Assembly: GCA_047611725.1 (NCBI GenBank)
Contig: JBLFWR010000004.1
Location: 10,496 to 74,495, forward strand
Direction of reading: 5' to 3'
DNA length: 64,000 nucleotides
Source: Candidatus Binatia bacterium
Lineage (GTDB): Bacteria > Desulfobacterota > Binatia > UBA1149 > CAITLU01
Shown here: piece after piece, positions 54 through 58,577 of the stretch
Layout: each line of letters opens with the position of its first letter
How positions within the stretch are numbered: position 1 is the stretch's first letter
The notes under the pieces: model-generated
The model's database searches: none
What the model was told of the DNA's origin: nothing
The model's input: only the letters and a program-made list of their open reading frames with translations
Translations under genes and position numbers: made by a program

Positions 54-1256
54 CTATTTGTGGGCCGCAGCACCGGCGGCCTCGATCAATATGGCTCGCT
101 CGTAGTCGGCCACATCTTCAAATGTCCCCTTAATTCGACGACGGTTCAGGAACAGGGTGGGGGTCGAACTCAGCTTTAGTTTTTCACCGCTTCGAGCCTC
201 GGCAACGATTTTTTCGAGAGTCTTATGCTCTTCCATGCAGACGCGAAAGGAGTCCTTATCGACTCCAGCGCGTTCGGCGAGGCGAAAGATATTGGTTTCG
301 AAAAGCTGGGGCTGATTGCCGAATAGCTCGGCCGAAACTTCGTGCTGTAGGCCCTGTAGTGATGCACATTGGGCCGCCTCAGCGGCACGACAGGCGTTGC
401 GGTGAACGGTGGAATCTATGGCACCGTTGCACTTCGCATCCAATGGGAAGTTGCGATGAACGACATGGACAAGGTTGCCGCGGCGCTCGAGAACCTCTTC
501 GAGGAGATTCCAATTGCGTCGACAAGAAGGACACTCAAAGTCTGAGTAGTCGATGAGCACGACGGGTTTGCTGCCAAGGTTGGCGGCTTCATCGTCGGAC
601 AAGACCAGCTGGTCGGAATTCTCGATCGGCTGCTCGAAATACCAAGCGTAGAAGTTCGGGTCGCCGGATTGAAGTTCTTGCAGCGTCATACTGCCCGGGT
701 CGAGGCGTTCTCCTTCGCCACCGGAAGAGGCCAGACCGATGGCGGCCGTAACGACCAACGCCGCTCCGGTGGAAGCGATTGCCCCGGCGACGGTCAATGG
801 GCGCGGATGTCCTGGATAGACACGCACGAACTCACGGCAGGCGAACGCAACCACTAAAGCCAGCGTAAAGGAGACGACGTACAACGAGGTACAAAGCAGG
901 CAGATTGTCTTCAGGATAAGGGCCGAGACCAGCGCCATGTACAAAGAAAACACGACCGATCCGATCGTGCCGGCCGCTGCCAGGCCCAGTAAGCGGCTGC
1001 CCGCTCGTCCGCCCTTTCTGGCCATCAAGAATGCTGCCGCCAGCGCTAGATACGCAAGCAGGGCGAGCCAGGCTACGGGTATCCCGGCGACCTTCGAATA
1101 GTCGCTCGATAGTACCGCGTCGCAATTGATCGAGCTGTTGACGTTGCAGAAGCTGGTGTATCGATCGCCGAGCGATGCGATTTGCGAGTGTACCCACGAA
1201 ATCTCAACCGCGATTGCCGCTCCAACGAGCGAAATTAGAGCGGCGGCGAGGAGCAA
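54..1256 (-). CDS. VKOR-family membrane oxidoreductase fused to a DsbA/thioredoxin-like domain (disulfide-bond formation)
   Basis: 400-aa ORF. The N-terminal ~150 aa are hydrophobic helices with a loop Cys pair (FCNVNSSINC) and a membrane CxxC (CLLC), the bacterial VKOR pattern. The C-terminal domain has a thioredoxin-fold CxxC (DFECPSCRR) in a DsbA-like context. Apparent TTG start at the ORF edge, so the start is uncertain. Confidence 0.8.
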   Translation of the reverse strand: MLLAAALISLVGAAIAVEISWVHSQIASLGDRYTSFCNVNSSINCDAVLSSDYSKVAGIPVAWLALLAYLALAAAFLMARKGGRAGSRLLGLAAAGTIGSVVFSLYMALVSALILKTICLLCTSLYVVSFTLALVVAFACREFVRVYPGHPRPLTVAGAIASTGAALVVTAAIGLASSGGEGERLDPGSMTLQELQSGDPNFYAWYFEQPIENSDQLVLSDDEAANLGSKPVVLIDYSDFECPSCRRNWNLLEEVLERRGNLVHVVHRNFPLDAKCNGAIDSTVHRNACRAAEAAQCASLQGLQHEVSAELFGNQPQLFETNIFRLAERAGVDKDSFRVCMEEHKTLEKIVAEARSGEKLKLSSTPTLFLNRRRIKGTFEDVADYERAILIEAAGAAAHK

Positions 1257-1386: not shown

Positions 1387-3183
1387 TCATGGCGTGGAAC
1401 CCGGCACTTGGGCCTCACAGCGTGCGACTGCGGCTTGGATTACGGGCTCGTCGAGGAGGCGAGCGGCTCGGCGATAGTCGTCCAGAGCCGCCGAACAACC
1501 CTGGCTACGCTCGCGAACCATGCCGCGGCCGTACAAAGCTTCAGGCACGTTGGGGGAAGATTCTAGGACGGTGTCGAACTCTTGTTCGGCGCGATCCAGA
1601 CGTCCATATCCCGCAAGGTCCATCGCATAGGCAATTCGCAGACCGATATGGCTGGGGTTGGTGGTTATCGATTCGGCACGAACCGCGAGGGCGCTTTCGC
1701 GGTCACCCGCGATCTCGTGGGTCACCACAAGGTTGTTCCATGCGCGGTCGAAATCGGGCCGCGAGGAAAGCGCGGTTCGAAAAGCGCGCCTGGCTTCGTC
1801 GAGCTTTCCGGCTTTGGCGAGCATGTTCCCCATGTTGTACGCGGCAACGCCGTAATCCGGCTTAATGGCCAGCGCGCTGCGAAACGAAGCTAGGGCCTCT
1901 TCGGTGCGGCCAGCTCGACCTAAGGCTGAGGCCAGTTCCATATGTGCCCGTGCACTGTGTGGCACGGCCTCTGTGGTTTGTTGAAATAGCTCGATGTGAG
2001 AACGCCAGTCACGCGTGCGGTCGATGTCGATGGCAATCCAGGCAAGGGCGACTGCGCCCAATACCACGCCAGCGCGTTTGCGATCGCGGTTTAGGGCGAA
2101 AGATAGCGCTGGCGCTGCCGCGAGGCACAACCCCAGGGTCGGCAGATAGAACAGACGCTCGCCCATGATCGTCCCAATCTGAACGATGCTGTTGGAGACA
2201 ATCGAGTACGAAGCAACAGCCAGCCCGAGGCCGACCGGTACGGCTGCGAGTTGCCGCCAGCGCCAAGCGCTCCACAGGCTACCTCCGCAAGTGGCAAACC
2301 CGATCACGCTCCAGAGGTTGCCGCGGAAGCCTTCGGCAATGCCAAGCGCATTGTAGGAATAGTCGATGCTGAGGGGGAGGGGCCAGACGACAAGTCCGAT
2401 GTAGCGGCCCAGGACAGCCAAAGCTCCGGCCGCGCGTCCAGGCAGATCGAGACCATGCAGCGGGTTGTCGAGGATATCGGCGGCTGTGGTCGCAGGAAGG
2501 AACGGCCCGTCAGCCGCGGCGCGCAAGCCAACGTAGGCTAGGAGTCCGATTCCAAGGGCCGCTGTTTCTTTTGCTGCACGACTGGCCGGCGCCGGTTGGT
2601 TACGATGCACAAAAATCGCGAACAGCGCCGGGGCCACGAGGATCGTCACTGCATTTTCTTTGGCTAGGATGCCAGCGAACAGGCAAAACGCTGCTGCTGT
2701 CAGCGCCATTGGTGACATTCGCGCGCGAAGCAAGGCCAGAGCTGCACCGGCAAAGCCCAGGGCAGCGAGGATTTCGGCTCGACCCACACTCCAAATTACG
2801 GCTTCGGAATGGATGGGCATTGCCACGAAGGCCAGAGCTGCTGCTGCGGCGCCGAGCCGGTCTACGCCCAAAGCTAGCGCCAGAAGCCATAGCAGCTGCC
2901 CGACTAGGGCATGAAGCACGATATTGGTCGCGTGAAAGGGGCCCGGCGCCGATCCGGATACCCAATGTTGGACCGCGTAGGTCAAGGTCGTCAGGGGTCG
3001 GTAGCCGGGAGAATCGGCACGGTCAGCACCCCACCAAGAGTACGTCGTGAAAATTTCCGGCAGATTCAGTTCGCCGACTACGTGCTCGTTGCTGATGATC
3101 GCGTTGACGTCGTCAGACACGAGCGGGGCATTGAATGCGCCCGCGTACGCGATTCCCGCAGCCACGACGAGGGCGGCGAACAT
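1387..3183 (-). CDS. Polytopic GT-C-type (TMTC/PMT-like) membrane glycosyltransferase candidate with C-terminal TPR repeats
   Basis: ORF 1387..3240; likely ATG at 3183 (MFAALVVAAG). The first-loop motif PLVSDDVNAIISNEHV resembles the conserved acidic motif of TMTC/PMT-type O-mannosyltransferases. Many hydrophobic segments follow. The last ~200 aa are TPR-like (e.g. AYNMGNMLAKAGKLDEARRAFRTALSSRPDF). Confidence 0.6.
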   Translation of the reverse strand: MFAALVVAAGIAYAGAFNAPLVSDDVNAIISNEHVVGELNLPEIFTTYSWWGADRADSPGYRPLTTLTYAVQHWVSGSAPGPFHATNIVLHALVGQLLWLLALALGVDRLGAAAAALAFVAMPIHSEAVIWSVGRAEILAALGFAGAALALLRARMSPMALTAAAFCLFAGILAKENAVTILVAPALFAIFVHRNQPAPASRAAKETAALGIGLLAYVGLRAAADGPFLPATTAADILDNPLHGLDLPGRAAGALAVLGRYIGLVVWPLPLSIDYSYNALGIAEGFRGNLWSVIGFATCGGSLWSAWRWRQLAAVPVGLGLAVASYSIVSNSIVQIGTIMGERLFYLPTLGLCLAAAPALSFALNRDRKRAGVVLGAVALAWIAIDIDRTRDWRSHIELFQQTTEAVPHSARAHMELASALGRAGRTEEALASFRSALAIKPDYGVAAYNMGNMLAKAGKLDEARRAFRTALSSRPDFDRAWNNLVVTHEIAGDRESALAVRAESITTNPSHIGLRIAYAMDLAGYGRLDRAEQEFDTVLESSPNVPEALYGRGMVRERSQGCSAALDDYRRAARLLDEPVIQAAVARCEAQVPGSTP

Positions 3184-3236
3184 TTCCGCATGGATTTTCA
3201 CATGGTCACGCCCTTGGATGGCTGACCGGGGCTGCC

Positions 3237-4442
3237 TCAACGGGAAACGACGTTTGTGACTGCCAACACCGGTAGTGGCGAGACTTGCTCGGTCTCAGTG
3301 TCGGCGGCGTCCATGACTCGTACGTTGAAGCTGCCGGGACTCAAGCTTTCGTTGGTCCGGAATGCGCACGTGACCACCGGGCCAGTCTCAGGCATCCCGT
3401 CCAAGTCGATGATTCCGATCTTGGCGGAACGTCCAAGTTTGTTTGCGGCGCCCAGCATGCCCCCCAAGAACAGGCAGTCCAGCTTGGTTGCACCCTGCGA
3501 GACAAAGCCGCCACTATCGCCGAGGTGGTCGATTTCGAACTGAAGGGCGCCGAGTTCATTGCTGCCTTCGACGATGGAGACTGTGATCTCGTATTCCGGA
3601 AGGCCGGGGCTAAATCCTGGAGAGTCGTCGTAGTTGTCAGTGGCGGTTCCGGTTTCTGCCTGGCCGTCGTCGGCCGCCGCTGGTGCAGACGGGCCAGCCT
3701 TATTGCCCAACGGATTGTTGGCGGCGATGCGGTCGCGCACGCGTTGCGCCGATGTTGATGCCGGCTCCACGGGTGCGACCGGCGCGGCGGGCACGGCGGG
3801 TGGGGTGGCCTTCGGTACGCTGGCGGTCGGAGCCTTTGGAGCTGGAGCCGGTTTGGATGCGGGTGTCGGGGCGGGGCTAGGCGGCGGATTGCTGCCTGCC
3901 GGCTTCTTTCCATCCGGCGAAACCTTCTGCTTGTCCGAAACCGCCGCCGGTGGCGTCGGTTTTTTATCGGTCTCCACGGGGGCCGGAACTGGGAGGGGTT
4001 GGATTCTCGCTTGGCGTGGAGAGCGGGGGTCGAGTTCCTTCCCTTCTTCGTCTTGGGCCTTCACGATCCTGGCTTTCATTGCCTTCTGGATTGTAGTCGC
4101 GTTGGTCATCGGGTCTGCCGGGATCATGCGGCAGGCGGCGAGATCGATTGGGCCGGTAAAACCGCGGTTGGAACGCGCGCGCAAAGTTAGGCGTCCCACG
4201 CCGTCGTCGGTGAAATCTCCGCCTACGAAGGGGCTGATGAAAGCGCACTCAAGATCAGAACCATCTCGGGAGATCGTCGCTCCGGCCTGCGAGTAGTCAA
4301 CAAGAATCGTCGCGCTCGCCAGCCTTGCGGTGTCTTGAGACAGGGAAATCACTACCTCGACGGGGGGTGCGCCACTGTTTCCACACGATGCGAGGATCAG
4401 GCCCAGGCCGGAGACGGCCAGAATTCGAGTGAACTTTTTCAC
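3237..4442 (-). CDS. Lipoprotein with two copies of a two-Cys beta-module separated by a long Pro/Ala/Lys-rich linker
   Basis: ORF 3237..4487. Probable GTG start at 4442 (VKKFTRILAVSGLGLILAS|CGN, lipobox) preceded by a GGGGGA Shine-Dalgarno-like run. Module copies lie at about 4032-4364 and 3240-3590 (ALQFEIDH...LDC...GPVVTCAFR). The linker is PAPTPASKPAPAPKAP-like. Confidence 0.75.
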   Translation of the reverse strand: MKKFTRILAVSGLGLILASCGNSGAPPVEVVISLSQDTARLASATILVDYSQAGATISRDGSDLECAFISPFVGGDFTDDGVGRLTLRARSNRGFTGPIDLAACRMIPADPMTNATTIQKAMKARIVKAQDEEGKELDPRSPRQARIQPLPVPAPVETDKKPTPPAAVSDKQKVSPDGKKPAGSNPPPSPAPTPASKPAPAPKAPTASVPKATPPAVPAAPVAPVEPASTSAQRVRDRIAANNPLGNKAGPSAPAAADDGQAETGTATDNYDDSPGFSPGLPEYEITVSIVEGSNELGALQFEIDHLGDSGGFVSQGATKLDCLFLGGMLGAANKLGRSAKIGIIDLDGMPETGPVVTCAFRTNESLSPGSFNVRVMDAADTETEQVSPLPVLAVTNVVSR

Positions 4443-4483
4443 GGATCCCCCTGAAGGCGGACAGCTGTTGAAATCGCTGCCAA

Positions 4484-5050
4484 TCACGGCGCGGTAGTCG
4501 TTGTGGTTGTGGACGAAGAGGTTGTAGTGGTCGAAGGGGAGCCATCGTCAGGCGCGACCGTCGTCGATGTTGATGTTGATGTTGCGCTGGCCGCGCTGAC
4601 GGCGACGGTGATCGTCGCCGTTTCGTCTGCGCCATCTGCGTCCTGCGCGGTTACGGTGCCAATTGTGAAGTTGCCGGATGTCGGAGCCACGGACGATTCG
4701 AAGGTGCACACGGCGACTTCCTCGTCTGCGTCGATGAGCGTGTCTCCGGCAGAAACGGCAATTTCTAGGTCGTCCACGTCGTCATCAACAAAAGAACTCG
4801 TGCCAGTCGCGTTGCCACTGGTTGAACAGTCCACGTTCGATCCCGCTCCCGTAAAGTCGCCTCCACCCGTGTAGGTGACGCCAAAGGTCAGCTGGTCGAT
4901 AGGGTTGGTAGCCGTGGCGACGGTGAATGAAATCAGAAAAGTCTGAATGTCACCCTGGCTGGGGCCGCAGCTGGTGATTAAAGGAAGAAGCAGACTTGCG
5001 AGGGTGACCAGGCGAAGTCGCGTGGAGAAGGAGTGCCATTGACGATTCAT
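4484..5050 (-). CDS. Lipoprotein with one two-Cys module and a Ser/Thr-rich C-terminal tail
   Basis: 188-aa ORF with lipobox LPLITS|CG. The module (LTFGVTYTGGGDF...VDC...EEVAVCTFE) lies at about 4598-4951. The tail is STSTSTTVAPDDGSPSTTTTSSSTTTTTTAP. It overlaps the downstream ORF by 4 nt, which suggests an operon. Confidence 0.75.
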   Translation of the reverse strand: MNRQWHSFSTRLRLVTLASLLLPLITSCGPSQGDIQTFLISFTVATATNPIDQLTFGVTYTGGGDFTGAGSNVDCSTSGNATGTSSFVDDDVDDLEIAVSAGDTLIDADEEVAVCTFESSVAPTSGNFTIGTVTAQDADGADETATITVAVSAASATSTSTSTTVAPDDGSPSTTTTSSSTTTTTTAP

Positions 5051-5218: not shown

Positions 5219-7096
5219 CTACTCGGTCTGACAGTTCTCGTCGCAGCCGTCGTCTCCGACGAAGTTGCTGTCGTCGCAGGTTTCGTCGCAACCAATTTCG
5301 CCATCGCCGCAGCGACAGACCTGGATAAACGACTTCAGGCTGATGGCCCCGGGGCCGGTCAAGCCACCCGCGCTGTTAATGGTCGACGACGAGGTCGCCG
5401 GCACACAGAACAGAGCGGCCGTGGTCGGCCGTGAGCTGTCATCAACGCAGGTGTCGTCTCCGGCGCAATCGGCATCGCTTGTACAGGCGTTGGGATTGTC
5501 CGGATCGTTTGCGCAGTAGCTGCCCAACGGTGAGGGGACACCGTCTCGGGTGATCTCAGCCTCGAAGCAGGGCTTGAACTCGAACTGACACACGCCTGCA
5601 CTGTTGGCAGCACAGGTTGAATCGTCGTTGCAGGAGCGGAAGCTCTGCAGCGAGCAAGTGCCCACCAAGTTGTCCGGGCACAGCTCCTTGTCATCCAAGC
5701 CGCAGATGAATTTGAACCCTACACCGCATTCGTTCGGCTGAGACTGCGGAGCGTTGGCGCCCACCGATCCACTTCCAACCGTACAAGTACTGTCACCTGG
5801 ACAGGACTCGTCGTCGAAACACGGCAGCGTCGGATCGTCGTCGCAGAATCCACAGTGGCACCAGTGTCCACAGGTAATGGGCTGAATCGGAGCTGCTGCA
5901 CAGGCACCGCCGCCACAGTCACCGTTGGTGCTGCATACGGTGCGTGGGTCGTCGTCGCAGCGCAGGCAATCCGCGTTGGTGCTGCACGAGTCACCATTGT
6001 CAACGCAGGTCGCAGGTCCGTTCAGCGGGTTGTTGCCCAACAGGAAGTTCGAGCACGGTAGCTTCGCCGTCTTCGTCACTGTGCCCGTAGTCACGTTGTC
6101 GAAGATGATCGACAAGCCAGCACCGGAAATGTTGGCACCCAGAGTCGGGGGACAATCGAACGAAACACCACCGAAATCAGGACTGATCGAATCGATCGTG
6201 CAGTCGGCCCCTGGGAACTGTCCATCGTCGCAAGTGAAGGTGGCTCCGAGCTCTAGGTTCTGGCCCAGACGTCCGCAGCGAGGACAGGGCTGATCGACCG
6301 CGTCGCCCAAGAACACACGCGATTTCAGGTTTACGCCGACCTTGGAATCACCAGTCACCGCGTTGCTGGTGCCGGTGAATTCACTGTCGAAAATCGACAC
6401 TACGCAGACCGGGTTGCCGGCCGACGATAGCGGGAGCGGGGGGCCGAACATGAACTTACATGCCACGCCACTGGGGCAATCGCCGTCGGAATCGCAGGCT
6501 GCAAGCGTTGTTACACAGCGCTTCTGACCAACAGGTCCGGCGATCTCGCAGTCGGTGTCGCCACCTTCATTGCAATCGCAGGTCGGGTTGCAAAGTTCGC
6601 CGCTCGGGCAATCTTCGTCTTCGACGCAGATTTCATCCGAGATGCTACAGCGGCGCAGGGTGCGAATGAGCACCGAACCGCCTTCAATCACTTCGGCGTT
6701 GTGGGCGATGCCTGTCCAGCCGGAATCCAGATCGGATCCACTCAGGACAAAAAGTTCAGCTGAGGTGCACGCGGGGCCGCCGTCTACCGGTGGGCAGTCA
6801 CAATCGAGTGTCACCCCAACTTGGCCGACCGCGTAGCGAAGACACTGCAGGGCGTCACTGGCACGGACGTTGCCGTCGCCGCTGACATCGCAAATGCACT
6901 CCTCGTCGCTGTCTGGGAGGCAAGCCTGGGCGCCTACGGCGACCTTAAGGATGGCCAGGCAGTCGCTGGCTCTCGGGCCCTCGTTATTGGTTGACGGTTG
7001 GCTACAGTCGCCCTGAGCGGCCAAAGCTGCTGCGGGCAAGAAGATTGAGAGGACGAGCGCGCCAGCGGTAAACAGGCGCATTGCGGAATTTCGCAC
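5219..7096 (-). CDS. Secreted, extremely Cys-rich protein (paralogue 1) with an N-terminal dockerin-like repeat pair and a C-terminal Myxococcus-type Cys repeat
   Basis: 625-aa ORF with a GTG start 7-8 nt after AAGGAGGG. Signal peptide ...PAAALAAQ|GD. 60 Cys by my hand count. Dockerin-like CDVSGDGNVRASDALQCLRYAVG. Core motifs SGWTGIAHN, PPLPLSSAGNPVC, PCPRCG, NISGAGLSI and FCVPATSSSTINSAGGLTGPG are shared with the ORFs at 10374..13346 and 13661..15742. The C-terminus CGDGEIGCDETCDDSNFVGDDGCDENC resembles the Myxococcus cysteine-rich repeat. Confidence 0.85.
   Translation of the reverse strand: MRNSAMRLFTAGALVLSIFLPAAALAAQGDCSQPSTNNEGPRASDCLAILKVAVGAQACLPDSDEECICDVSGDGNVRASDALQCLRYAVGQVGVTLDCDCPPVDGGPACTSAELFVLSGSDLDSGWTGIAHNAEVIEGGSVLIRTLRRCSISDEICVEDEDCPSGELCNPTCDCNEGGDTDCEIAGPVGQKRCVTTLAACDSDGDCPSGVACKFMFGPPLPLSSAGNPVCVVSIFDSEFTGTSNAVTGDSKVGVNLKSRVFLGDAVDQPCPRCGRLGQNLELGATFTCDDGQFPGADCTIDSISPDFGGVSFDCPPTLGANISGAGLSIIFDNVTTGTVTKTAKLPCSNFLLGNNPLNGPATCVDNGDSCSTNADCLRCDDDPRTVCSTNGDCGGGACAAAPIQPITCGHWCHCGFCDDDPTLPCFDDESCPGDSTCTVGSGSVGANAPQSQPNECGVGFKFICGLDDKELCPDNLVGTCSLQSFRSCNDDSTCAANSAGVCQFEFKPCFEAEITRDGVPSPLGSYCANDPDNPNACTSDADCAGDDTCVDDSSRPTTAALFCVPATSSSTINSAGGLTGPGAISLKSFIQVCRCGDGEIGCDETCDDSNFVGDDGCDENCQTE
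6821..7009 (-). other. Dockerin-like EF-hand repeat pair (domain of the 625-aa protein)
   Basis: ASDCLAILKVAVG ... CDVSGDGNVRASDALQCLRYAVG. The second segment fits the D-x-[NSD]-x-D-G-x(5)-D-A-L-x-x-L-[KR] calcium-loop plus helix pattern of dockerin repeats. The first segment keeps only the helix. Confidence 0.6.
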
Positions 7097-7241: not shown

Positions 7242-8765
7242 CTACAGCGGAACGACAGCTACGGTGACGTCAATGGTATTGAAGTCAAAGCCGTTACCGT
7301 CAGGATCGCCAGCGTCGTCGATTACAACCCCGAAATCACCCGCCGAGGGTGTTCCGTTGAAGCGGCAGCGCGCGATCTCGGTCGGTCCGTCAAACCCGAA
7401 CAGCGCGATGTAGCCGACGTTCAGCAGGCTGTCTCCGGTGATGTCGTTGAACACCGGTAAAACACTACCGCCGATCGAATCGGTACAATCCACATCACCG
7501 TCGATGTCGACAAAGGTGCCAGCCGCGCCACTGTAATCAACACCGAACTGCAAGGCCCCGAAGGTCAGGGCATTGCTGACGCTGAAGACGATCTCGGAAA
7601 CCGGGCCACTAGCTTCGGTGGTTGTGGTCGTGGAGCTCGTCGTCGTCGGAGCGACATTCGTGGTCGTCGTCGTTCCGCCATCAAGCGTGGTGGTCGTCGG
7701 CTCCAACGTGGTGCTGGTAGTCCCAACCACATTGATTTGGCTCGGGATAACCGACGGGGTGAATCCGAACTCATTGCCGTCCGGGTCCGTTGCGTCGGTG
7801 ATCGTGATGTCGAAGTCGTCGGCAACCGGGCAGATAGCCCCGTTGAACGTGCATTCGACGATGTCGGCAGGACCTTGGATCCCGGCGATGCTGATCACGC
7901 CTACGGTCAGGATCTGCAGGCTTTCTTTGTCGTTGGCTGACGGAACCGATTGGCTTACTAGGAAAGCGCATTCAACGTCTGCTCCCATTCCGGCGAAGCC
8001 GCCCGGTGCATCTGCATAGTCGATATCGAACTGCAGAGAACCGAAGAGAGCGGCGTCTTCGACGCGAAAGACAACGTTGCACTGAACTGCCGGGGGCAGT
8101 GTCACGCTGGTTGTCGTCGACGAAGACGTTGTCGTGGTCGGAGGGATGGTGGTCGTAACTGGCGGCAACGTGGTCGTCGTGTCGGAGACCGTCGTCGTCG
8201 TCGAAGTCGTGGTGCTGTTGAAGTTGCAAGGTGCAACGTTCTCACAGACCGGATCTTCACAATCGGTCAGACCATTGCCGTCGTCATCCACGTCGTTGTC
8301 GCAATTTTCGCAAGACAAGGGGTTTGGATCGCGATCGATGCACAGCGGAGGCGTTTCGTCACAGCCAGCAACGGAACACTCGCAAATCGCGGTGGTGGCC
8401 GCTTCGAGGGCGTCGATGTTGAGGCCGCTGTCGAACACGCAGCTAAACAGTGCCGAGATCTCATCGATGGTGCAGCTGTCGATAGTCACGGTCAGCAGAT
8501 TGCCGTCCAGATCGATGTCGGATTGGCAGCCGTCGAGTGAGCTCGCCAAGTCGCAATTGGCGGCGCCGAGATCGTCGGTGTCAATGCTGGCGCCAGCGGC
8601 GTCCAGATCAACAGTCACGACTACACGGCCACAATCGCCGTCACCGACGATGCCGAAGAAAATTCTAATTAGTCCGCTACCACCGCCATCGTCACAACCG
8701 CCAACGGCAAAGCCGAGCGAGAGGACAAGGGCGCCAAGACCTAGCTTGCGCATCCAACCTTTCAT
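7242..8765 (-). CDS. Lipoprotein with a Cys-rich N-terminal region, Thr-rich linkers and two two-Cys modules
   Basis: 507-aa ORF with ATG 7 nt after AAGGAG and lipobox LGFAVGG|CDD. The N-terminal region includes CENCDNDVDDDGNGLTDCEDPVC. Linkers are STTTSTTTTVSDTTTTLPPVTTTIPPTTTTSSSTTTS and similar. Modules lie at about 7725-8087 (GSLQFDIDYADAPGGF...VEC...IVECTFNG) and 7245-7604 (GALQFGVDYSGAAGTF...VDC...IARCRFNG). Confidence 0.85.
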   Translation of the reverse strand: MKGWMRKLGLGALVLSLGFAVGGCDDGGGSGLIRIFFGIVGDGDCGRVVVTVDLDAAGASIDTDDLGAANCDLASSLDGCQSDIDLDGNLLTVTIDSCTIDEISALFSCVFDSGLNIDALEAATTAICECSVAGCDETPPLCIDRDPNPLSCENCDNDVDDDGNGLTDCEDPVCENVAPCNFNSTTTSTTTTVSDTTTTLPPVTTTIPPTTTTSSSTTTSVTLPPAVQCNVVFRVEDAALFGSLQFDIDYADAPGGFAGMGADVECAFLVSQSVPSANDKESLQILTVGVISIAGIQGPADIVECTFNGAICPVADDFDITITDATDPDGNEFGFTPSVIPSQINVVGTTSTTLEPTTTTLDGGTTTTTNVAPTTTSSTTTTTEASGPVSEIVFSVSNALTFGALQFGVDYSGAAGTFVDIDGDVDCTDSIGGSVLPVFNDITGDSLLNVGYIALFGFDGPTEIARCRFNGTPSAGDFGVVIDDAGDPDGNGFDFNTIDVTVAVVPL

Positions 8766-10373: not shown

Positions 10374-13346
10374 CTATGGTAGCGACGGAACGTTCAGGAC
10401 CGACGTTCCTCCTTGGCGCAACCGACCCATTCCAGGCAAGCCCGCTGTTGAGTTCACTGCTACCGACGTTGTCGCCGGTACGCAGTAGTTCGCAACGGTG
10501 AAGAAGTTAGTCGGATCTGCGTTACCGTTAAGCGTATCTCCACCCTCAACCTGATGGTCTGGCAGGTAGCACAAAGCGACATCAGCCACGCAGATACCGG
10601 CGCCGGGAACGATCTCGTCGCAGTTCTGGGTCGTGTTTTCGTCTTCGGGCTGGCACGGGAGCGACTCAAACTCTCCGCTACAGTGGAATGTCTTGCCAGC
10701 GCCACACACCCCGGCGTCAGGATCTACCACGTCGCAGGGGAATCCAGCGCAGTCGAAGGTGTCACCACAGACCAGGCCATCTTGGCTGCCGCCGTTACAC
10801 TGTCCAGAAGGTAGGCAAAGCGGAACACACCGACCGCTCGGACAAGCGTCGCCACAGACGCCGTCGCCAGGGGTGACAAGGGTGTCGCAATCGGCGTTAA
10901 CCGAACAGCTGTTGAGGCTCTTTTCGGGATCGCCCGCTGTGCAATGCACTGGGGTATCCGTACAGGTGCCTCCAGGGCAATCGCTGTCCTCGTCGCAGGC
11001 AGCGGTGCTGTTACTACAGGTCGTAAAAATCCCACTCCCGGTGTTGCCTGTCACACAGCCCTGGCCGAGTTCCGCGCCAGCATTGCATGAGGCGTTACAC
11101 TTGTTTGGCTTGGTCCGTATTGAGCCAGTACCCAGGACACAGTTGCAGTCAAAGTTCTCGAAACCTTGAGCATCGCAGGCACCAGGGAAGGGCAGTGCTA
11201 CTAGCTCGCTAGTTGTCGGTTGAAATAGGATCTGCAAGCCAGCTCCGGAAATGTTTTTCCCGACCAAGGGCTGACAGTCTACCGAAGTGGTCCCGAAATT
11301 AGTGAATGCCTCGACCCGACACGTGTCTCCTGCATCGATTCCCTGAGCGCAAATCAAGTCAAGCTGACAAGGCCCTCCAGCGCAGCTCGGAGTCGCTGTG
11401 CTGCAGACTTCTTCTGGCCCTGGGCAATCCGAGTCGAAACGACAATCGAGTCCCCAACATTCCCCGCCATCGGTACAATCGCCATTGGCTGTGCAGATAG
11501 TGCCGTCGTTGCTGCCAAAACGGCACTCAAGGGTGTCGCCACAGGTTCCTTCACACCGTTCCTCGTTGCGGTCGCCACCAAGACAGTACCCGCCGCATGT
11601 CGGACAAGGACTTGTCTGCGTGGTGCCGAGGAAAACCTTGGCTCGCAGTTCGTAGTTGATTATGTGCTCACCCGTAACGTGGTTGGCGGTGCCCTCCACG
11701 TCGGAGAAATACTCATTTCTCACGCAAGTCTGGGTTCCACTCGAGGACAGAGGAAGCGGCGCGCCGTTGGTGAGGACCACGCACATTGCCGCGCTGTTAC
11801 AGCGCCCCCGGCACACTTCACTCTCGGCACAATCCGACTGTCTGACGCACGGCCCGGTTGGCGATCCGCCAGTATCGTAGCACTGGGCGTTGCAGTCCGA
11901 CTCGCCGGTACACGACGCTCCGGCATTAGTGGTGAAGGCGTCGCACTGGGCGCAGTCGGCGTCTTCATGCTTGCCATCTACATCACCGAAAGCATCGCAG
12001 CTGGGATCACCAAGATCGAGTCCCCAGTCACAACGCGGCTCTGTTTGCGCGAACACGGTGCAAATCGGGTCGGTTGAAACGCCGATACATGTTGCCGTGT
12101 CGATAGCGTCGAACTCGGTACAGTCACAATTAGTGACCGCGGTGATAAACCCAGCTCGGTCCGGGACACCGGCGTTGTGAGCCAAGCCGGTCCAGCCGCT
12201 GTCAAGCTTTGCTGCAAATCCATCAACAAACCGACGCGCGCGCGGAATATCTCCGCAGGTGCACTCGAACGCATCGCCCGGAGGCAAGCAGTTCCCAACG
12301 CAGGCCGAGTCTTCGGTCCCATCACATTCCTCGCCGATCAGCGCGAACTGGTTTCGAACCGGATTCACGCGATTGTCGCCGCAAAAAGACTTGACGCTAA
12401 GCGGGTAGGCCGCGTTGATGATACTCGTGGGGAGGAATTCCGTTTCCCCGGGGCCTTCGGTCGTTGACCCGGCCTCCATAGCTACGTCTGATAGACATGC
12501 CTGCGCCGCCTCGACCGTCGTGACTCCGCCGACGCCTAGTCCGCATAGATCAAGTACTGTCAGTGTTTCCACGGTGCACTTCTTAGGAATGGCGTCGACG
12601 AGCTTCTGGATCGCTTTCGCTACTTTCTCAGAAGTCTTTTGGTCTGCGACCTGGCAGTTGGTGGTCGTCACCGTAACCGGCTCTCCTGGAACTAGGGCCG
12701 TACGGTTGACCTTGTCTCGACACTTGGCGACGGTTTTGCCGATCGAAGCGGCAGTTTTGCCAACGGTTAAACCCAGAGCGAACATACACTTCTCGGCTTC
12801 TTTGGTGAGCCCGCTTTCGGAGTCGATGCTGCCAGCCACGTTGGCAAGGATCGACTCGGCGATTTGCTCGGCGGCATCAGACACACAATTCCCGATGTCG
12901 GCGGCGTCGGTGATCTCTCCGCAGAGTGACCCCGGGAATCCAATTTTTGAGGCATTCATTGGCTTGGCTTTAGCCCCTGCAGTGCAGATTTCGGGGCTCG
13001 AGCCGTTGGGTGGGCAGGCTTGGCTGTCGATACAGAGCAAACCTGAAACGGAGCAAGTGCTGACGCACTTTTTCCCAGCGAGCTTGACCGCTTTTGCCCG
13101 GGCCTTTGTGATTTTCAACGACGCTTTGGCGTCAGGGCACGACGCAGCCGGATTGGAGAGAAGGCACTTGACGCCATCTTTCGCCGCGTTTTGAACTAGC
13201 TTGGCGGCGCTTTTTGCCATGATGCCAGTACACTTGGCTTCAATCTGGCTGAATGCCTGAGCGTGGGCGTTGCCTGGGGCAACTAGCGCAAACGCCAAGG
13301 CTGTGAGAACCGCCATTGATGTGGCGGCGGTGTGAAAACGTTTCAT
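10374..13346 (-). CDS. Secreted, extremely Cys-rich protein (paralogue 2) with an N-terminal helical Cys-ladder domain
   Basis: 990-aa ORF with ATG shortly after GGAGGAG and signal peptide ...LVAPGNAHAQ|A. The first ~300 aa are Lys/Ala-rich with spaced Cys. Then come an FCGDN...EECDG Myxococcus-repeat-like segment and the shared core motifs DSGWTGLAHN, GAPLPLSSSGTQTC, SPCPTCGG, NISGAGLQI and YCVPATTSVAVNSTAGLPG. Confidence 0.85.
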   Translation of the reverse strand: MKRFHTAATSMAVLTALAFALVAPGNAHAQAFSQIEAKCTGIMAKSAAKLVQNAAKDGVKCLLSNPAASCPDAKASLKITKARAKAVKLAGKKCVSTCSVSGLLCIDSQACPPNGSSPEICTAGAKAKPMNASKIGFPGSLCGEITDAADIGNCVSDAAEQIAESILANVAGSIDSESGLTKEAEKCMFALGLTVGKTAASIGKTVAKCRDKVNRTALVPGEPVTVTTTNCQVADQKTSEKVAKAIQKLVDAIPKKCTVETLTVLDLCGLGVGGVTTVEAAQACLSDVAMEAGSTTEGPGETEFLPTSIINAAYPLSVKSFCGDNRVNPVRNQFALIGEECDGTEDSACVGNCLPPGDAFECTCGDIPRARRFVDGFAAKLDSGWTGLAHNAGVPDRAGFITAVTNCDCTEFDAIDTATCIGVSTDPICTVFAQTEPRCDWGLDLGDPSCDAFGDVDGKHEDADCAQCDAFTTNAGASCTGESDCNAQCYDTGGSPTGPCVRQSDCAESEVCRGRCNSAAMCVVLTNGAPLPLSSSGTQTCVRNEYFSDVEGTANHVTGEHIINYELRAKVFLGTTQTSPCPTCGGYCLGGDRNEERCEGTCGDTLECRFGSNDGTICTANGDCTDGGECWGLDCRFDSDCPGPEEVCSTATPSCAGGPCQLDLICAQGIDAGDTCRVEAFTNFGTTSVDCQPLVGKNISGAGLQILFQPTTSELVALPFPGACDAQGFENFDCNCVLGTGSIRTKPNKCNASCNAGAELGQGCVTGNTGSGIFTTCSNSTAACDEDSDCPGGTCTDTPVHCTAGDPEKSLNSCSVNADCDTLVTPGDGVCGDACPSGRCVPLCLPSGQCNGGSQDGLVCGDTFDCAGFPCDVVDPDAGVCGAGKTFHCSGEFESLPCQPEDENTTQNCDEIVPGAGICVADVALCYLPDHQVEGGDTLNGNADPTNFFTVANYCVPATTSVAVNSTAGLPGMGRLRQGGTSVLNVPSLP

Positions 13347-15742: not shown

Positions 15743-16005
15743 AAATCTCCTCCGGTTATTTCGATACAAATTGGCGGCGAATGTATTTATACGTCTCGCA
15801 CCGTGTTGGGGCGGAGATTAAGATTGCGTCCGTAGCGGTGTCAAGGGAAGTTCTAGGATAACCTAAGCAATAAGCGTTCAACTCGGAGTTTAGGAAGCTC
15901 GCTCGGCAGTCGAAATGTACGATGACGCAGCGAGCCGTTGAGCGGTTTTCCGCGCTGCCAGACCAAGCCGTCGCGAAAGCGATTCCCCACAGGAGACTGA
16001 TTCGA

Positions 16006-18895: not shown

Positions 18896-20248
18896 CTAAC
18901 GTCCGAAACTCAAGGTAAACGGCAGGGCGCCGGGAAAGATCGGGTCCTTCGTCAATTCGACGTTGTTGGCGATGTTGAAGACCCTGAGTCCGGCCGTGAC
19001 CGGTTTCGAGTTTTCGCGGAAAGACACCCACAATTCGCCCGCCTCGGTCAGTTCGATGTCGGTGATGGCCTCTGCGCTCGAAAGAAGTTCGGCGCTTACC
19101 CGCCCTTGCTTAAGGTCGATCTCGACCACCCGGCTGCGAGAGTCCGCTCCCGCTACGATGCCATAGGCACGAGACGACCCGACCACGGCCAGGTCGAACA
19201 GGTCGCCTCCCAGAGCGGAACCGTCGATCAGGACTCCGAGCGACGCTCCAGCCTGGAGATCCACCAATTCGACCCCACCGTCGGACTGATCAACGAACAC
19301 TTTGCCGGGCCCGCCTATATATAGAAGCCCGGAGCGCGGCTCTACGATCAGTCCCTTGGTTTCCAGAAACGGGTTCTCAAGCTCCAAGTCGATGGAGCCA
19401 ACGATCTTGTCGGTCTCTACATCGATCACTGCCAGCCGGCCGGGAGCTGCGGGCAGGAAAAATCCGGTGTGATCGAGCATTTGCAGGGAGACGTAGAGAC
19501 GGTTGCCGACGACCGCCATTTGGTCCATCTCGGGGAGCCCATCCTCGTCGGCGAGTGAAGAGAGATCGATTCGCTCTAGGATCAGCCCGTCGCAACTAAC
19601 CGAAAGGCCCGATTGCAGCACCGCGACGTCCAAGACCAGCAGCTCCGCTCCATCGTAGAGAGTGGCGTATGCCTTGTTGCCCACCCGCGCGATGTCGTGA
19701 GGATTGGAGTTAAAGCCATCCGATAGACTGCACTGTTTTACAGTCGGGAGTGCGGGGTCATCGAGATCCAGGCGCTGCACCGAGTTGGCACCGAAGCGGT
19801 TGAGAAAAACCGGTTCGGTGCCGAGCTTGCGGACTACAGAGTCGCGATGAAGCACTCCCGGCCGAAACTGAACAGCGCGTGTGGCCAGATCTACGACCGC
19901 AACCCCGGCCGCATCAAAGCGAGACGAGGCCGTGGCAACCGCGACGAAGCGGTCTTTGAATGCGGCGCAGCGGGGAATGGTATCCGTGACCGCCGCAAGC
20001 AGTATTCCCAAGGCGTCGGATGCCGACAGCCTCCCGTCCGGCTCGTGCTGCGCCGAGTTGTCGCCCCGGTCGTCGTACTGTCCTGCTACCGCCTTCTTCA
20101 GGGCAGCCAGGGCGTCGCTGGCAAAGACAAAGCCGTCGCCTGTGACGTCGCCACACAGTGCAAACCCGGTGCTTGGGAGGCAAAGCAGCAGGGTGATCAA
20201 AGCGGGGAGACATGCGCCGCCCAGGATTCTCGTTTGATTGCGTATCAT
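18896..20248 (-). CDS. Secreted beta-propeller protein (YncE/lactonase-like repeats) with an N-terminal dockerin-like repeat pair
   Basis: 450-aa ORF with signal peptide ...LCLPSTGFA. Dockerin-like CGDVTGDGFVFASDALAALKKAVAG ... DGRLSASDALGILLAAV. The remainder has repeated beta-propeller-like strands (LLVLDV, LAVIDVETDKIVGSIDL, VELVDLQAG, VVEIDLKQGRV). It starts 10 nt after the stop of the TonB-dependent receptor. Confidence 0.75.
   Translation of the reverse strand: MIRNQTRILGGACLPALITLLLCLPSTGFALCGDVTGDGFVFASDALAALKKAVAGQYDDRGDNSAQHEPDGRLSASDALGILLAAVTDTIPRCAAFKDRFVAVATASSRFDAAGVAVVDLATRAVQFRPGVLHRDSVVRKLGTEPVFLNRFGANSVQRLDLDDPALPTVKQCSLSDGFNSNPHDIARVGNKAYATLYDGAELLVLDVAVLQSGLSVSCDGLILERIDLSSLADEDGLPEMDQMAVVGNRLYVSLQMLDHTGFFLPAAPGRLAVIDVETDKIVGSIDLELENPFLETKGLIVEPRSGLLYIGGPGKVFVDQSDGGVELVDLQAGASLGVLIDGSALGGDLFDLAVVGSSRAYGIVAGADSRSRVVEIDLKQGRVSAELLSSAEAITDIELTEAGELWVSFRENSKPVTAGLRVFNIANNVELTKDPIFPGALPFTLSFGR
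19979..20158 (-). other. Dockerin-like EF-hand repeat pair (domain of the beta-propeller protein)
   Basis: GDVTGDGFVFASDALAALKKAV and EPDGRLSASDALGILLAAV, separated by about 15 aa. Confidence 0.6.
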
Positions 20249-32959: not shown

Positions 32960-33033
32960 CGATGATCTGTACCGAGGCCGATACCCGCAGGCAATGAGGT
33001 GCGTCTTTCCTTGATTTGGAGCCGGGCCGTGGG

Positions 33034-42661: not shown

Positions 42662-42721
42662 TTCGCTCCGGCAGCGTTTTTCCGTCTAAAATCGCGTTTG
42701 CCAACAGGAGGCCGCGCGTTC

Positions 42722-43201
42722 ATGCATCAGCACTCTAAGATACAATCCACCGTTCTCCCCTTCTTACTCGCAACCCTCTTGGCTGCCTGCACGGGCGGCA
42801 CTGGCGAAGAAAAGAAAGTAGCTGCACCGGCCGCTCCGGACGAAGATCGAGTCTTCACTCTGGCCATTGAGCTGGCCGATGAGATCGAACTCGGTGCGCT
42901 CCAGGTCGATTTTGACTACAGCGATTCGGTTGGCGGCTTCGTCGGCGATGCCGACGCGGTTGAATGCGAGACCGTCGTCGAAGGCGCGTTGAGCAGCTAC
43001 AACAATCAGACTGCCGAAAGGATCCTGAAAGCGGCGTTTGTCGCCGTCGACGGAATGTCGGGCCCCATCCGCATTGCTGAATGCAAATGGAAGGGAGTGT
43101 TCGATCCAGCAACGCTCGGCGTCGAGGTTCGTGACGCGTCGGCACCGGACTTAAGCAATATCGCCCCACTTCCCGAGCTGCGGCTCGTCATCGAGGATTA
43201 A
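42722..43201 (+). CDS. Small lipoprotein consisting of a single two-Cys module
   Basis: ORF 42698..43201. The ATG at 42722 gives MHQHSKIQSTVLPFLLATLLAA|CTGG (lipobox). The module LGALQVDFDYSDSVGGFVGDADAVEC...GPIRIAECKWKG lies at about 42845-43198. Confidence 0.7.
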   Translation: MHQHSKIQSTVLPFLLATLLAACTGGTGEEKKVAAPAAPDEDRVFTLAIELADEIELGALQVDFDYSDSVGGFVGDADAVECETVVEGALSSYNNQTAERILKAAFVAVDGMSGPIRIAECKWKGVFDPATLGVEVRDASAPDLSNIAPLPELRLVIED

Positions 43202-51375: not shown

Positions 51376-51429
51376 GTTTACATGGCAGGCCGGTCTCCGG
51401 CCGAGTTCTATTTGGTACTTCGTGAAGGT

Positions 51430-51465
51430 CATCGTGACGACCATCGTGACGACCATCGTGACGGT
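51430..51465. repeat. Tandem 12-mer (catcgtgacgac) x3
   Basis: Two perfect copies and one near-perfect copy in the 453-bp gap after fur. Confidence 0.9.
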
Positions 51466-51798
51466 CTTCTTGACGGTGGAATGCCGCCTTGGGGCGATGC
51501 GCTTGGAGAAACGGCGTTGTGGGATCAGATCGCTCTTGCGTGGACGCGTCGCATGCCGAGTCCCCCTCCTGAAATGGCAAGGTGTCGAGGTTGTCACACG
51601 CCCGACCCAGATCTCATGTCGGCTTCCGATCTAGTTTCGCCCGCGTCTCTGATCTTCCGGTCAGATGACGAATTAGCGGCGGCGGTTTCCGCGCTCACCA
51701 CCCTCACCACCCACCCAGGGCATGACGACCTTGCTCGTACAGCCTTGCTGGCTCGCTGGTTGGCCTACGAAACCCCGCGCAGCGATTAGGCGCAGCGT

Positions 51799-53517
51799 CT
51801 AGTCGGCACGCGACTCCAAAGTTGGTTGCGGAATCACAGCAGTGCCTTCTGAATCCAAGGCCTCGATGAGGTCGATGGCGAAGTCGTCGTCGCCAACCGT
51901 ATCGCGGGGAGTGAATCCGCAACGAACGATGTCGGTGCTGCCGGCTGGCGCCTGATCAAGAATCACAGCGAGCCCGACACCGTCGATCAACGGTTCCGCA
52001 CTAAGCTCGCCTTCAACGAGAAGGGAACACTCGGGAGCGCCGGGTAGGCCCCCGAATCTTCCGGCGTTTCCCGAATCAAACCACTGCAGTTCCAGACTCT
52101 GCAATGGCTGGTCGGTTTCGACACTCAAAATCACTGCGCCCACGGCTGGGCATGTGGTGCCCGTACGCATGAATACGGCTAGGCGAAGGGTGGCCAGAGC
52201 GTCGCTCGCAGTGATGGCGCCGTTGCCGTTTACGTCGCAGACAAAAGCCGGACACCGAATGTCTTGACCGACGGCGGATCTGAGCACCAGCAGTGCATCA
52301 GTCGCGAGGATACGACCGGAGTCGTCCGCGTCACCGCAAAGTCGCGACACCGAACAACCCGAAGAGCACCCGTCTCCGTCGTCGGTATTCCCATCGTCAC
52401 ATTCCTCAACGCTTAGTCGCTCGATTCCGTCGCCACACGCGGCAGCGATGCATCCATCCAGGCACGCGTCGCTATTGTCGGCGTTGGCGTCGTCACAGTC
52501 CTCATCGGCTTGGACGACTCCGTCACCGCAGAAGGGTATTGTGGTGGTCGTTACCGATGAACTGCAGTCTAGTTTCGTGATCGCGACGCCAGGTGGCGGA
52601 TCGAGTTCTTCACCGGCCTCGTTGCTGGCCACTTCCACAGCGATCGGAAAGTCGGCTCCGCTGGGTACGCTGCTGCCTGCCCAAGCGCAGCGCACCAGTG
52701 GGCTCGGCGAGTGGAAGGGGTCTAGAGCTATGTGGGCCGCTTCAAGGCGCGCCGCAACGTCGCGGTCGTTGATCGAAGTCAGGGTTCCCGCAAGGAGGAT
52801 CTCGCATTGAACGGCGGAACCGACGCCTAAGAAGTCACCCAGAGCCGGGTCATAATCCAAGTGCCACTGAAGCGCCGTCAATGGTTCCGTGCCGAGCACC
52901 GAAACTTCAACTTGGCAATGAACGGGAGCAATCGTTGAGGTGGTCACCGAAGAGGTAGTCACCGAAGAGGTAGTCGTTGATGTCGTAGAGCTGGTGCTGC
53001 TGTTGGGATCACAGCCTCGTGGAACGGGGACCACCGTGGGCAAGGGCTCAAGGGGTTCGCCATCCGTGGTCGCCGCGTCGTTTACGGTTACGGCAAAGTC
53101 ACTGGCCACAACAACTGCCGTTTGGTCAAAGTTGCATGTGGCGATCACATTCGGTCCTTGAAAACCGAACAGAGAGATCAAACTGGTCGTCAGTTTTCGC
53201 GATGACCGATTGTCCTGGAACGAGCCGAGTACACCGCCAATCTGCTCACTGCAGTCGGGCGTGACCATGCCCGGGGTCACTGCGAACGAACCCGGCGCGT
53301 CTTGATAGTCTACTTCGAAACCCAGGGATCCGAGTTCGAACGGTTGAACGAGCTGCATCTCGACCACACAGCGCGCTTCGGTTTGCCACGCGGATCCAAG
53401 CACGAGGCCAACAGCTATTGCAAAAGGCATTGCCAAGAGCGCTGCCCACCCACGGGCCTTCCGGAACTTTGGGAACTTTGGGAACTTTGCGAATCTTCGA
53501 ACTTTCACGAGTTCCAC
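51799..53517 (-). CDS. Secreted multi-modular protein: three two-Cys modules, two Myxococcus-type Cys repeats and a dockerin-like repeat pair
   Basis: 572 aa with N-terminal KFPKFPKF and a hydrophobic signal segment. Modules lie at about 53023-53370, 52570-52923 and 51802-52146. The linker is SSTSSTTSTTTSSVTTSSVTTST. FCGDGVVQADEDCDDANADNSDAC...CGDGIERLSVEECDDGNTDDGDGCSSGC. Dockerin-like CGDADDSGRILATDALLVLRSAVG ... CDVNGNGAITASDALATLRLAVF. Confidence 0.85.
   Translation of the reverse strand: MELVKVRRFAKFPKFPKFRKARGWAALLAMPFAIAVGLVLGSAWQTEARCVVEMQLVQPFELGSLGFEVDYQDAPGSFAVTPGMVTPDCSEQIGGVLGSFQDNRSSRKLTTSLISLFGFQGPNVIATCNFDQTAVVVASDFAVTVNDAATTDGEPLEPLPTVVPVPRGCDPNSSTSSTTSTTTSSVTTSSVTTSTIAPVHCQVEVSVLGTEPLTALQWHLDYDPALGDFLGVGSAVQCEILLAGTLTSINDRDVAARLEAAHIALDPFHSPSPLVRCAWAGSSVPSGADFPIAVEVASNEAGEELDPPPGVAITKLDCSSSVTTTTIPFCGDGVVQADEDCDDANADNSDACLDGCIAAACGDGIERLSVEECDDGNTDDGDGCSSGCSVSRLCGDADDSGRILATDALLVLRSAVGQDIRCPAFVCDVNGNGAITASDALATLRLAVFMRTGTTCPAVGAVILSVETDQPLQSLELQWFDSGNAGRFGGLPGAPECSLLVEGELSAEPLIDGVGLAVILDQAPAGSTDIVRCGFTPRDTVGDDDFAIDLIEALDSEGTAVIPQPTLESRAD
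52171..52338 (-). other. Dockerin-like EF-hand repeat pair (domain of the 572-aa protein)
   Basis: DADDSGRILATDALLVLRSAVG and DVNGNGAITASDALATLRLAVF, separated by about 8 aa. Confidence 0.65.
52342..52533 (-). other. Two Myxococcus-type cysteine-rich repeats (CGDG...EECDDGN...DGC, DUF4215/TIGR02232-like)
   Basis: CGDGVVQADEDCDDANADNSDACLDGC and CGDGIERLSVEECDDGNTDDGDGCSSGC match the remembered consensus closely. Confidence 0.75.
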
Positions 53518-58561: not shown

Positions 58562-58577
58562 CGAGCCCCGTTCGCTG

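Follow-up and report, generated by a model that had tools for sequence, protein, structure and literature searches.

In a 64-kb stretch of DNA from Candidatus Binatia, called the window throughout, three otherwise unrelated secreted proteins carry dockerin-type modules, and five proteins, four of them lipoproteins and the fifth itself one of the dockerin proteins, carry a second module with two invariant cysteines and a predicted cohesin-like fold. We propose that these parts form a lipoprotein-anchored, non-cellulosomal cohesin-dockerin-like system that tethers cargo proteins to the cell envelope, a reading to which we give a probability of roughly 55%. The proposal draws on the dockerin identity of the segments, the predicted fold of the candidate partner module, the fusion of both domains in single proteins, the split between lipobox-bearing and dockerin-bearing members of the module family, and the adjacency of the genes. 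Homologues that bear organism names are mostly labelled Candidatus Binatia or 'Deltaproteobacteria', and the host looks like an uncultured diderm lineage rather than a clostridium.

Dockerin modules on three secreted proteins

The three genes encode a 625-amino-acid (aa) Cys-rich protein (5219-7096) with 60 Cys and a C-terminal DUF4215 fragment, a 450-aa YncE-like beta-propeller (18896-20248), so called after the source annotation of its homologues, and a 572-aa modular protein (51799-53517) with recognisable Pfam modules. The intervals cited for the dockerin-like segments in a first-pass annotation of this DNA are right in position, but the genes that contain them are all coded on the minus strand, and the plus strand gives no sensible translation there. 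The 572-aa protein as delimited here has no database record, and its start codon is probably called differently elsewhere; a KFPKFPKF repeat at the N-terminus of its open reading frame (ORF; 53430-53480, minus strand) suggests that the real start lies further downstream.

Each protein contains one pair of segments of the form D-x-S/T/N-G-D/N-G-x-V/I-x-A-S/T-D-A-L-x-x-L-x-x-A-V, namely ...NNEGPRASDCLAILKVAVG...CDVSGDGNVRASDALQCLRYAVG in the 625-aa protein, CGDVTGDGFVFASDALAALKKAVAG...EPDGRLSASDALGILLAAV in the 450-aa protein and CGDADDSGRILATDALLVLRSAVG...CDVNGNGAITASDALATLRLAV in the 572-aa protein, the two repeats lying 33-36 residues apart in all three. A regular expression for the helix half of the pattern picks out exactly six places when the window is translated in six frames, each of them within these pairs, and none in 120 shuffles, which bears out the earlier claim that paired segments of this type occur on three otherwise unrelated secreted proteins. 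The same annotation described each segment as a 12-residue calcium loop plus helix. This description fits both repeats of the 572-aa protein, the only one in which both satisfy the full loop consensus, but fails for one loop in each of the other two: in the 625-aa protein only the second repeat has the full loop, the first being degenerate (C-G-Q-P-x-S-x-G-x-x-P-x-x-S-D in orthologues), and in the 450-aa protein only the first repeat has it, the second loop being extended. A type I dockerin consists of two tandem repeats of ~22 residues, in which the 12-residue calcium loop has Asp, Asn or Ser at positions 1, 3 and 5 and Asp at position 12; all six segments have Asp at this last position.

The modules delimited around these pairs, likewise on the minus strand, occupy the mature N-terminus of the 625-aa protein (6797..7012), where the second repeat is canonical (CDVSGDGNVRASDAL) and Cys residues both flank the module and lie inside it, and the mature N-terminus of the 450-aa protein (19958..20167), where two invariant Cys bracket the module. 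In the 572-aa protein (52150..52341) both repeats are canonical, four Cys are present and the module abuts the third cohesin-like module. The conserved cysteines probably clasp these dockerin modules by disulfides. We considered whether the 'ALC-GD' start of the 450-aa family could be a lipobox and rejected this, since Leu would be an unusual residue at position -1 and since the Cys in question pairs with the invariant C-terminal Cys.

The Dockerin_1 hidden Markov model (PF00404) has a curated cut-off, or gathering threshold, of 22.9 bits. The 572-aa protein, with 25.8 bits, and the isolated 72-residue segment of the 625-aa protein, with 25.4 bits, both exceed it. The full-length 625-aa protein gives no match to PF00404, a negative that the score of the isolated segment reveals as an artefact of whole-protein scoring. 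The 450-aa protein stays below the cut-off, at 17.3 bits whole and 19.8 bits isolated. Its family nevertheless matches Dockerin_1 in 33 of 43 orthologue segments (best E 3.5e-6), and the 625-aa family does so in 18 of 36, while any one EF-hand family is matched by no more than about three orthologue segments of these two families. A search with the dockerin model had been put forward as a check on the first reading, and the reading passes it directly for two proteins and through its orthologues for the third. Sequence searches of the PDB point the same way, with dockerins at the top for the 572-aa protein (8x39 at E 3e-4, then 4uyp, 1daq and 1ohz), dockerins 1daq and 2mte as the best matches of the 450-aa protein at modest to weak E, and dockerin 4fl4_A as the best match of the 625-aa protein at a weak E of 0.22.

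An AlphaFold2 model of the lowest-scoring of the three, the N-terminal module of the 450-aa protein (43 sequences, pLDDT 94.2), contains, according to DSSP, two helices (H16-27 and H49-61) with a loop before each and without an entering helix ahead of loop 1. When this model is compared with the PDB by Foldseek, the matches are almost exclusively dockerins taken from complexes with cohesins, and all of the top 22 are dockerin chains (TM 0.56-0.67, TMq 0.45-0.66), although the best E is weak at 0.025. A canonical EF-hand (e.g. PF13499) is a helix-loop-helix with Glu at loop position 12, an arrangement that none of the six segments displays; Asp at this position and the lack of a helix ahead of loop 1 are traits of dockerins and not of calmodulin-type EF-hands.

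Conservation of the loop Asp residues, on which the earlier assignment was made to hinge, is high in both families. Among 43 orthologues of the 450-aa protein (47-71% identity), D7, D18, D36 and D51 are invariant together with C5, G12 and C67, and D44 is conserved in at least 90%; the 36 orthologues of the 625-aa protein all share D17, D53 and five Cys, with D2 and D42 kept in at least 90% of them. The dockerin module is kept in 79 of 82 closer propeller homologues. In the 625-aa family it is N-terminal in most homologues and C-terminal in about ten, and thus behaves as a mobile module. We regard it as established that the three segments are genuine dockerin-type modules, built of a duplicated calcium loop and helix (F-hand pair).

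Two further observations concern calcium loops of other kinds. In more distant propeller homologues (P0095-P0130) the 'SDAL' dockerin gives way to an N-terminal pair of the form C-x-G-D-C-N-G-D-G-x-V-x-x-x-E-L ... D-x-N-x-D-G-x-V-x-V-D-E-L, whose loops have Glu at position 12, and one such homologue has a Pfam EF-hand match; the propeller family thus keeps a calcium-loop pair while the type of the pair has changed. Outside the dockerin pairs the window has a single D-x-N-G-D-G loop, DLNGDGVIN, which belongs to a 228-aa ORF (58073-58759, minus strand) that has a pseudopilin-like hydrophobic N-terminus (SLLEVAATLV...), no dockerin helix after the loop and no Pfam match.

The two-cysteine module and its carriers

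Searching the window with a profile of its own copies turns up nine modules of about 115 aa, each with two invariant Cys, at one to three copies per protein. Three of them belong to the 572-aa protein, all on the minus strand: module 1 (53020..53370, hmmsearch E 1.6e-39), module 2 (52573..52917, E 1.1e-39) and module 3 (51814..52134, E 8e-30), the last being a divergent subtype that falls in a separate cluster and comes right after the dockerin. In this protein the connection between the cohesin-like modules and the dockerin is made by Cys-rich acidic repeats of the DUF4215/myxo_disulf_rpt type (52348..52548, minus strand; Pfam DUF4215 E 4e-10, TIGR02232 E 1e-11). The remaining copies are distributed over four lipoproteins. 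On the minus strand, a 507-aa lipoprotein (7242..8765, lipobox VGG-C), encoded directly upstream of the 625-aa gene, combines modules at 7737-8081 and 7257-7595 with an N-terminal region rich in Cys and with linkers rich in Thr; a 188-aa lipoprotein (4484..5050, lipobox ITS-C), encoded directly downstream of the same gene, has one divergent module (4592-4918); and a 416-aa lipoprotein (3237..4487, lipobox LAS-C) has modules at 4023-4358 and 3249-3593 with a long Pro/Ala-rich linker between them. A 167-aa lipoprotein on the plus strand (42698..43201, lipobox LAA-C) has the single module (42857-43195) that was modelled. The separation of modules by Thr- or Pro-rich linkers is scaffoldin-like, and the first-pass remark that many copies of a candidate partner sit on lipoproteins stands, with the addition that a dockerin protein carries three of them itself. 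In the 507-aa lipoprotein the extra Cys-rich region spans residues 40-190 approximately, includes a degenerate module-like stretch and has a sub-threshold match to the acidic double-disulfide repeat NF033662 (E 6.5e-5).

As modelled with AlphaFold2, the module from the 167-aa lipoprotein is all-beta, with about 10 strands, and the model has a pLDDT of 96.1. Foldseek against the PDB returns cohesins for about 36 of the top 38 matches, with probabilities up to 1.0 and TMq of 0.45-0.57; these include type I and type II cellulosomal cohesins as well as those of C. perfringens and A. fulgidus, while antibody and other sandwiches rank lower, at a TM of about 0.3. The superpositions on cohesins are weak, with E of at least 0.009 and a root-mean-square deviation of 4.5-7 Å, the module being 25-50 residues shorter. 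The model thus appears to resemble the cohesin fold specifically, whereas homology stays conjectural, and the ~115-aa module may be described as a miniaturised, sequence-cryptic cohesin-like beta-sandwich.

An exhaustive profile search places the module in 946 representative proteins (50% identity clusters), mostly with two to four copies each, four being the maximum. In a Pfam scan of the 97 best members, Dockerin_1 is found in 30, DUF4215 in 42 and Cohesin in 0, and any given catalytic Pfam domain is confined to at most one of the 97. Fusion to Pfam-detectable dockerins in these 30 members, added to the predicted fold, strengthens the earlier suggestion that the module is a candidate partner. 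Local profiles applied to the 149 best members detect a dockerin in 55, with recurrent architectures MMDM, MMD and MMMD (M, two-Cys module; D, dockerin), the first of which is that of the 572-aa protein. Among the same 149 members, a lipobox alone is present in 45, a dockerin alone in 54, the two together in one and neither of them in 49 (Fisher p 1.7e-10, a value that overstates independence and so counts for less than it seems, since the members are related and not independent events). This near-exclusive split resembles the division between anchoring and adaptor scaffoldins. The family thereby shows the scaffold trait of tandem modules on non-catalytic proteins, some with an anchoring device and some with a dockerin. 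Clustering of 328 modules separates lipoprotein-borne from scaffold-borne copies only partly and gives no support for a specificity code.

Gene neighbourhoods

The 625-aa dockerin gene lies on one strand between the genes for the 507-aa lipoprotein and the 188- and 416-aa lipoproteins. This order of lipoprotein, 625-aa dockerin protein and lipoproteins, followed by a TPR membrane protein and a VKOR-DsbA/thioredoxin fusion (54-1256, minus strand) at the end of the cluster, is kept in loci L003 and L004 of related genomes, where the orthologues are 58-71% identical. The presence of the VKOR-DsbA gene nearby fits disulfide formation in Cys-rich exported proteins. A search for relatives with the 625-aa protein returned only unrelated DUF4215 tails from other phyla.

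The 450-aa propeller gene lies 10 bp downstream of a gene for a TonB-dependent receptor (20259-22325, minus strand) and is flanked on its other side by a gene for a DUF1302 protein (16487-18454, minus strand), an order conserved in locus L001. The receptor-propeller pairing recalls E. coli yncD/yncE, a TonB-dependent receptor with a YncE propeller. In a more distant genome, a Binatia-labelled metagenome-assembled one, a lipoprotein of the 167-aa type and a dockerin-propeller are encoded on one contig, 16 locus tags apart (VEL28_03545 and VEL28_03625). The first-pass statement that the window has no glycoside hydrolase (GH) holds for the 27 window proteins scanned, the remaining ORFs lying outside that scan.

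Several neighbouring genes deserve a brief description. Two further Cys-rich proteins are encoded on the minus strand at 10374-13346 (990 aa, 84 Cys) and 13661-15769 (702 aa, 46 Cys). They have the motifs SGWTG-AHN and GPPLPLS in common with the core of the 625-aa protein, carry a Lys/Ala-rich, Cys-containing N-terminal domain, by eye probably helical, instead of a dockerin, have no Pfam or NCBIfam match and are syntenic in L001, L003 and L004; some of their homologues match Disintegrin (PF00200) weakly. Three large polytopic membrane proteins are encoded at 1387-3240 (minus strand), 23607-25592 (plus strand) and 25573-27267 (plus strand), and TPR repeats occur in two of the three. A sub-threshold match to TPR_Slam (surface lipoprotein assembly modifier) is seen for the first, and the L001 counterpart of the last matches PMT/PMT_2 (protein O-mannosyltransferase-like). 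Taken with the Thr/Ser-rich linkers of the lipoproteins, these PMT-like and TPR membrane proteins suggest that the linkers might be O-glycosylated, as those of scaffoldins are.

The ORF at 33016-35019 (plus strand) encodes an AAA_22 ATPase that ends in a peptidoglycan-binding domain, an ExeA/GspA-like architecture, and is followed by the ORF of an unannotated 368-aa protein (35016-36122, plus strand); the two could be accessory components of type II secretion, which would bear on how dockerin proteins might get to the cell surface. Two short peptide repeats were also seen, DHRDDHRDDHRD in an ORF with low GC content at third codon positions and of doubtful coding status (51382-51789, plus strand), and SQSQGQGQGQGQ inside a 341-aa protein (41636-42661, plus strand).

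A proposed docking system and its known counterparts

Based on the above data, we propose that lipid-anchored proteins whose modules are all cohesin-like would form the anchoring scaffolds of the envelope, at its periplasmic face or at the cell surface, and that cargo bearing a dockerin would dock on these lipoproteins through calcium-dependent binding of the dockerin to the module, possibly with some specificity of pairing. The cargo would comprise the 625-aa Cys-rich protein, the YncE-like propeller and the 572-aa adaptor. Proteins of the 572-aa type, which combine modules with one dockerin and have no lipobox, would serve as adaptor scaffolds that add docking sites and extend the network. 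In a fuller and more tentative version of this mechanism, to which we give somewhat less credence than to docking as such, the family of about 950 clusters would be one of miniature, disulfide-bonded, lipid-anchored cohesins, missed by cohesin sequence searches, that build a hierarchical, non-degradative network and position a propeller accessory to TonB uptake, along with Cys-rich proteins, at the outer membrane.

Several observations weigh against the docking proposal. By sequence, the module has no tie to cohesins: the five module-bearing window proteins have no match to Pfam Cohesin (PF00963) at E<=1, none of the 97 scanned family members matches it at E<=0.01, a PDB sequence profile search with the module gave no cohesin and only a spurious synaptotagmin match, and hhalign of the module against three C. 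thermocellum type I cohesins, with a thin profile, gave a probability of 0.3%. No other Pfam family recognises the two-Cys module either, and NCBIfam has no model for it or for the Cys-rich proteins. On the structural side, no Foldseek E for the dockerin or the module model reaches 1e-3, and such weak values, with a TM to cohesins of only about 0.5, would allow for a convergent small beta-sandwich. Dockerin-like modules without a known cohesin partner are, moreover, common in genomes. Lastly, the next module in MMDM proteins abuts the dockerin without a linker, at a spacing of 66-70 aa, and this arrangement could be an X-module-like intramolecular partnership rather than intermolecular docking.

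The most serious alternative, which we consider possible though clearly less probable than envelope docking on lipoproteins, accepts the dockerins as real but makes them calcium-stabilised modules for adhesion or folding with a different binding partner in the envelope, be it an outer-membrane protein (the adjacent TonB-dependent receptor or DUF1302 barrel), exopolysaccharide or peptidoglycan; the two-Cys modules would then be generic sandwich spacers or ligand-binding domains, found alongside dockerins only because this lineage builds its secretome from both. The undetectable sequence relation to cohesins and the weak Foldseek values speak for this explanation; the gene for the 450-aa dockerin protein adjoins those for the receptor and the DUF1302 protein and not a lipoprotein gene, in a conserved arrangement, and the occurrence of DUF4215 repeats with both modules suggests promiscuous domain shuffling in the secretome. 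It accounts less well for a Foldseek list that, among all the beta-sandwiches in the PDB, is overwhelmingly specific to cohesins. The lipobox/dockerin split and the conserved gene order, moreover, are predictions of an anchor-cargo relation for which mere co-secretion has no need.

It is unlikely, in our view, that the dockerin and the module after it form a fixed intramolecular didomain, akin to an X-module-dockerin pair, in which the module stabilises or caps its own dockerin while the lipoprotein copies have an unrelated role. The constant linkerless spacing in MMDM proteins, the 572-aa protein included, is suggestive of such an arrangement, as is the divergent subtype of the window's post-dockerin module, seen solely after dockerins. 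Against it, the 625-aa and 450-aa proteins and many MMD and MMMD proteins have dockerins without an adjacent module, most post-dockerin modules cluster with the general type, and the class of lipoprotein-only members is left unexplained. We think it very improbable that the segments play no part in docking and are just EF-hand-like calcium-binding motifs of a generic kind, or low-complexity matches that arose by chance in high-GC proteins rich in Ala and Asp, for although the 450-aa protein falls under the Pfam cut-off, a few orthologues weakly match EF-hand families and distant propeller homologues have an EF-hand-type pair with Glu at position 12, the six matches compare with 0 expected and are always paired and placed at a mature N-terminus or in a discrete module, the segments are conserved down to 47% identity, Dockerin_1 is the commonest Pfam match (33/43 and 18/36 against no more than three for any EF-hand family), and the fold search yields dockerins and not calmodulin-type EF-hands.

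Cohesin-dockerin pairing is among the tightest of modular protein-protein interactions and is widely used in synthetic biology, whereas its biology outside cellulosomes is poorly understood. If the two-Cys module were a working cohesin, surveys based on Pfam Cohesin would underestimate the spread of such systems. The envelope docking system proposed here would mean that diderm bacteria can anchor cohesin-dockerin systems through lipoproteins and that such a system can organise non-degradative cargo, including Cys-rich proteins and a propeller associated with a TonB receptor. A compact, disulfide-stabilised binding pair (~115 aa plus ~65 aa) would then also become available for engineering.

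The best-known system of this kind is that of Clostridium thermocellum, in which CipA carries type I cohesins together with a type II dockerin and is anchored by SdbA/OlpB (PDB 1ohz, 2ccl, 3kcp, 2b59). As in the clostridial cellulosome, dockerins made of a duplicated calcium loop and helix occur in the window on diverse cargo, repeated beta-sandwich modules with Thr/Pro-rich linkers occur on non-catalytic proteins, and the two tiers of CipA and SdbA/OlpB have their likeness in anchoring proteins with modules only and adaptors with modules plus one dockerin; cellulosome structures are also the top fold matches of both window models. There are differences as well. In a cellulosome the dockerins are borne by carbohydrate-active enzymes and the scaffoldin has a CBM, and by this measure the window system is no cellulosome: the cargo here is a Cys-rich protein and a YncE-like propeller, and we found neither GH nor carbohydrate-binding module (CBM), with no carbohydrate-active enzyme or CBM match in the cargo proteins and no GH among the 27 proteins scanned. 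The anchoring device is a lipobox and not S-layer homology (SLH) domains or sortase, the module, with its two invariant Cys, measures ~115 aa against 140-170 aa for cohesins and escapes the Pfam Cohesin model, and the dockerins, unlike clostridial ones, are probably disulfide-clasped. The 572-aa and other MMDM proteins also resemble the X-module-dockerin dyads of types II and III (2b59, 4iu3), in which a beta-sandwich is fused to a dockerin without a linker, but here the sandwich comes after the dockerin and is itself a member of the family of putative receptors.

Outside cellulosomes, a cohesin is known from A. fulgidus (2xdh), and cohesin-like modules from C. perfringens (2jh2, 2vo8, 2o4e) belong to toxin/glycosidase complexes. 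Cohesins of both species rank near the top of the fold matches of the window module (TMq 0.51-0.57). As with the non-cellulosomal modules at large (Peer et al. 2009, FEMS Microbiol Lett 291:1, as drawn on in PMC8542988), the pairing proposed here lies outside cellulose degradation, and some proteins bear both modules. Those cohesins were found through sequence similarity, by which the window module is undetectable, and the literature searched contains no description of lipoprotein anchoring or of a TonB-receptor locus for them. Cohesin-dockerin logic outside classical cellulosomes has also been read from genomes in Ca. Stygibacter (Cloacimonadota), for which a cellulosome-like system was proposed (PMC8542988), in the Gram-negative Saccharophagus degradans, which has dockerin-like and cohesin-like ORFs as well as surface enzymes anchored by a lipobox (PMC2386152), and in the amylosome of Ruminococcus bromii (PMC4611034). 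The likeness to the window ends with their dockerins, which sit on degradative enzymes (GH, peptidases, amylases), and their cohesins, which match InterPro/Pfam; in S. degradans, moreover, lipoprotein anchoring and cohesin-like modules are treated as separate mechanisms, whereas the window modules sit on the lipoproteins themselves. A literature search for Binatia or Binatota with dockerin or cohesin found no paper. Set beside these systems, the window adds a lipoprotein-borne receptor module that is cryptic to cohesin models, cargo without a recognisable carbohydrate-active enzyme and probably disulfide-clasped dockerins, and its two-Cys module, outside Pfam Cohesin by sequence, plausibly works like a cohesin.

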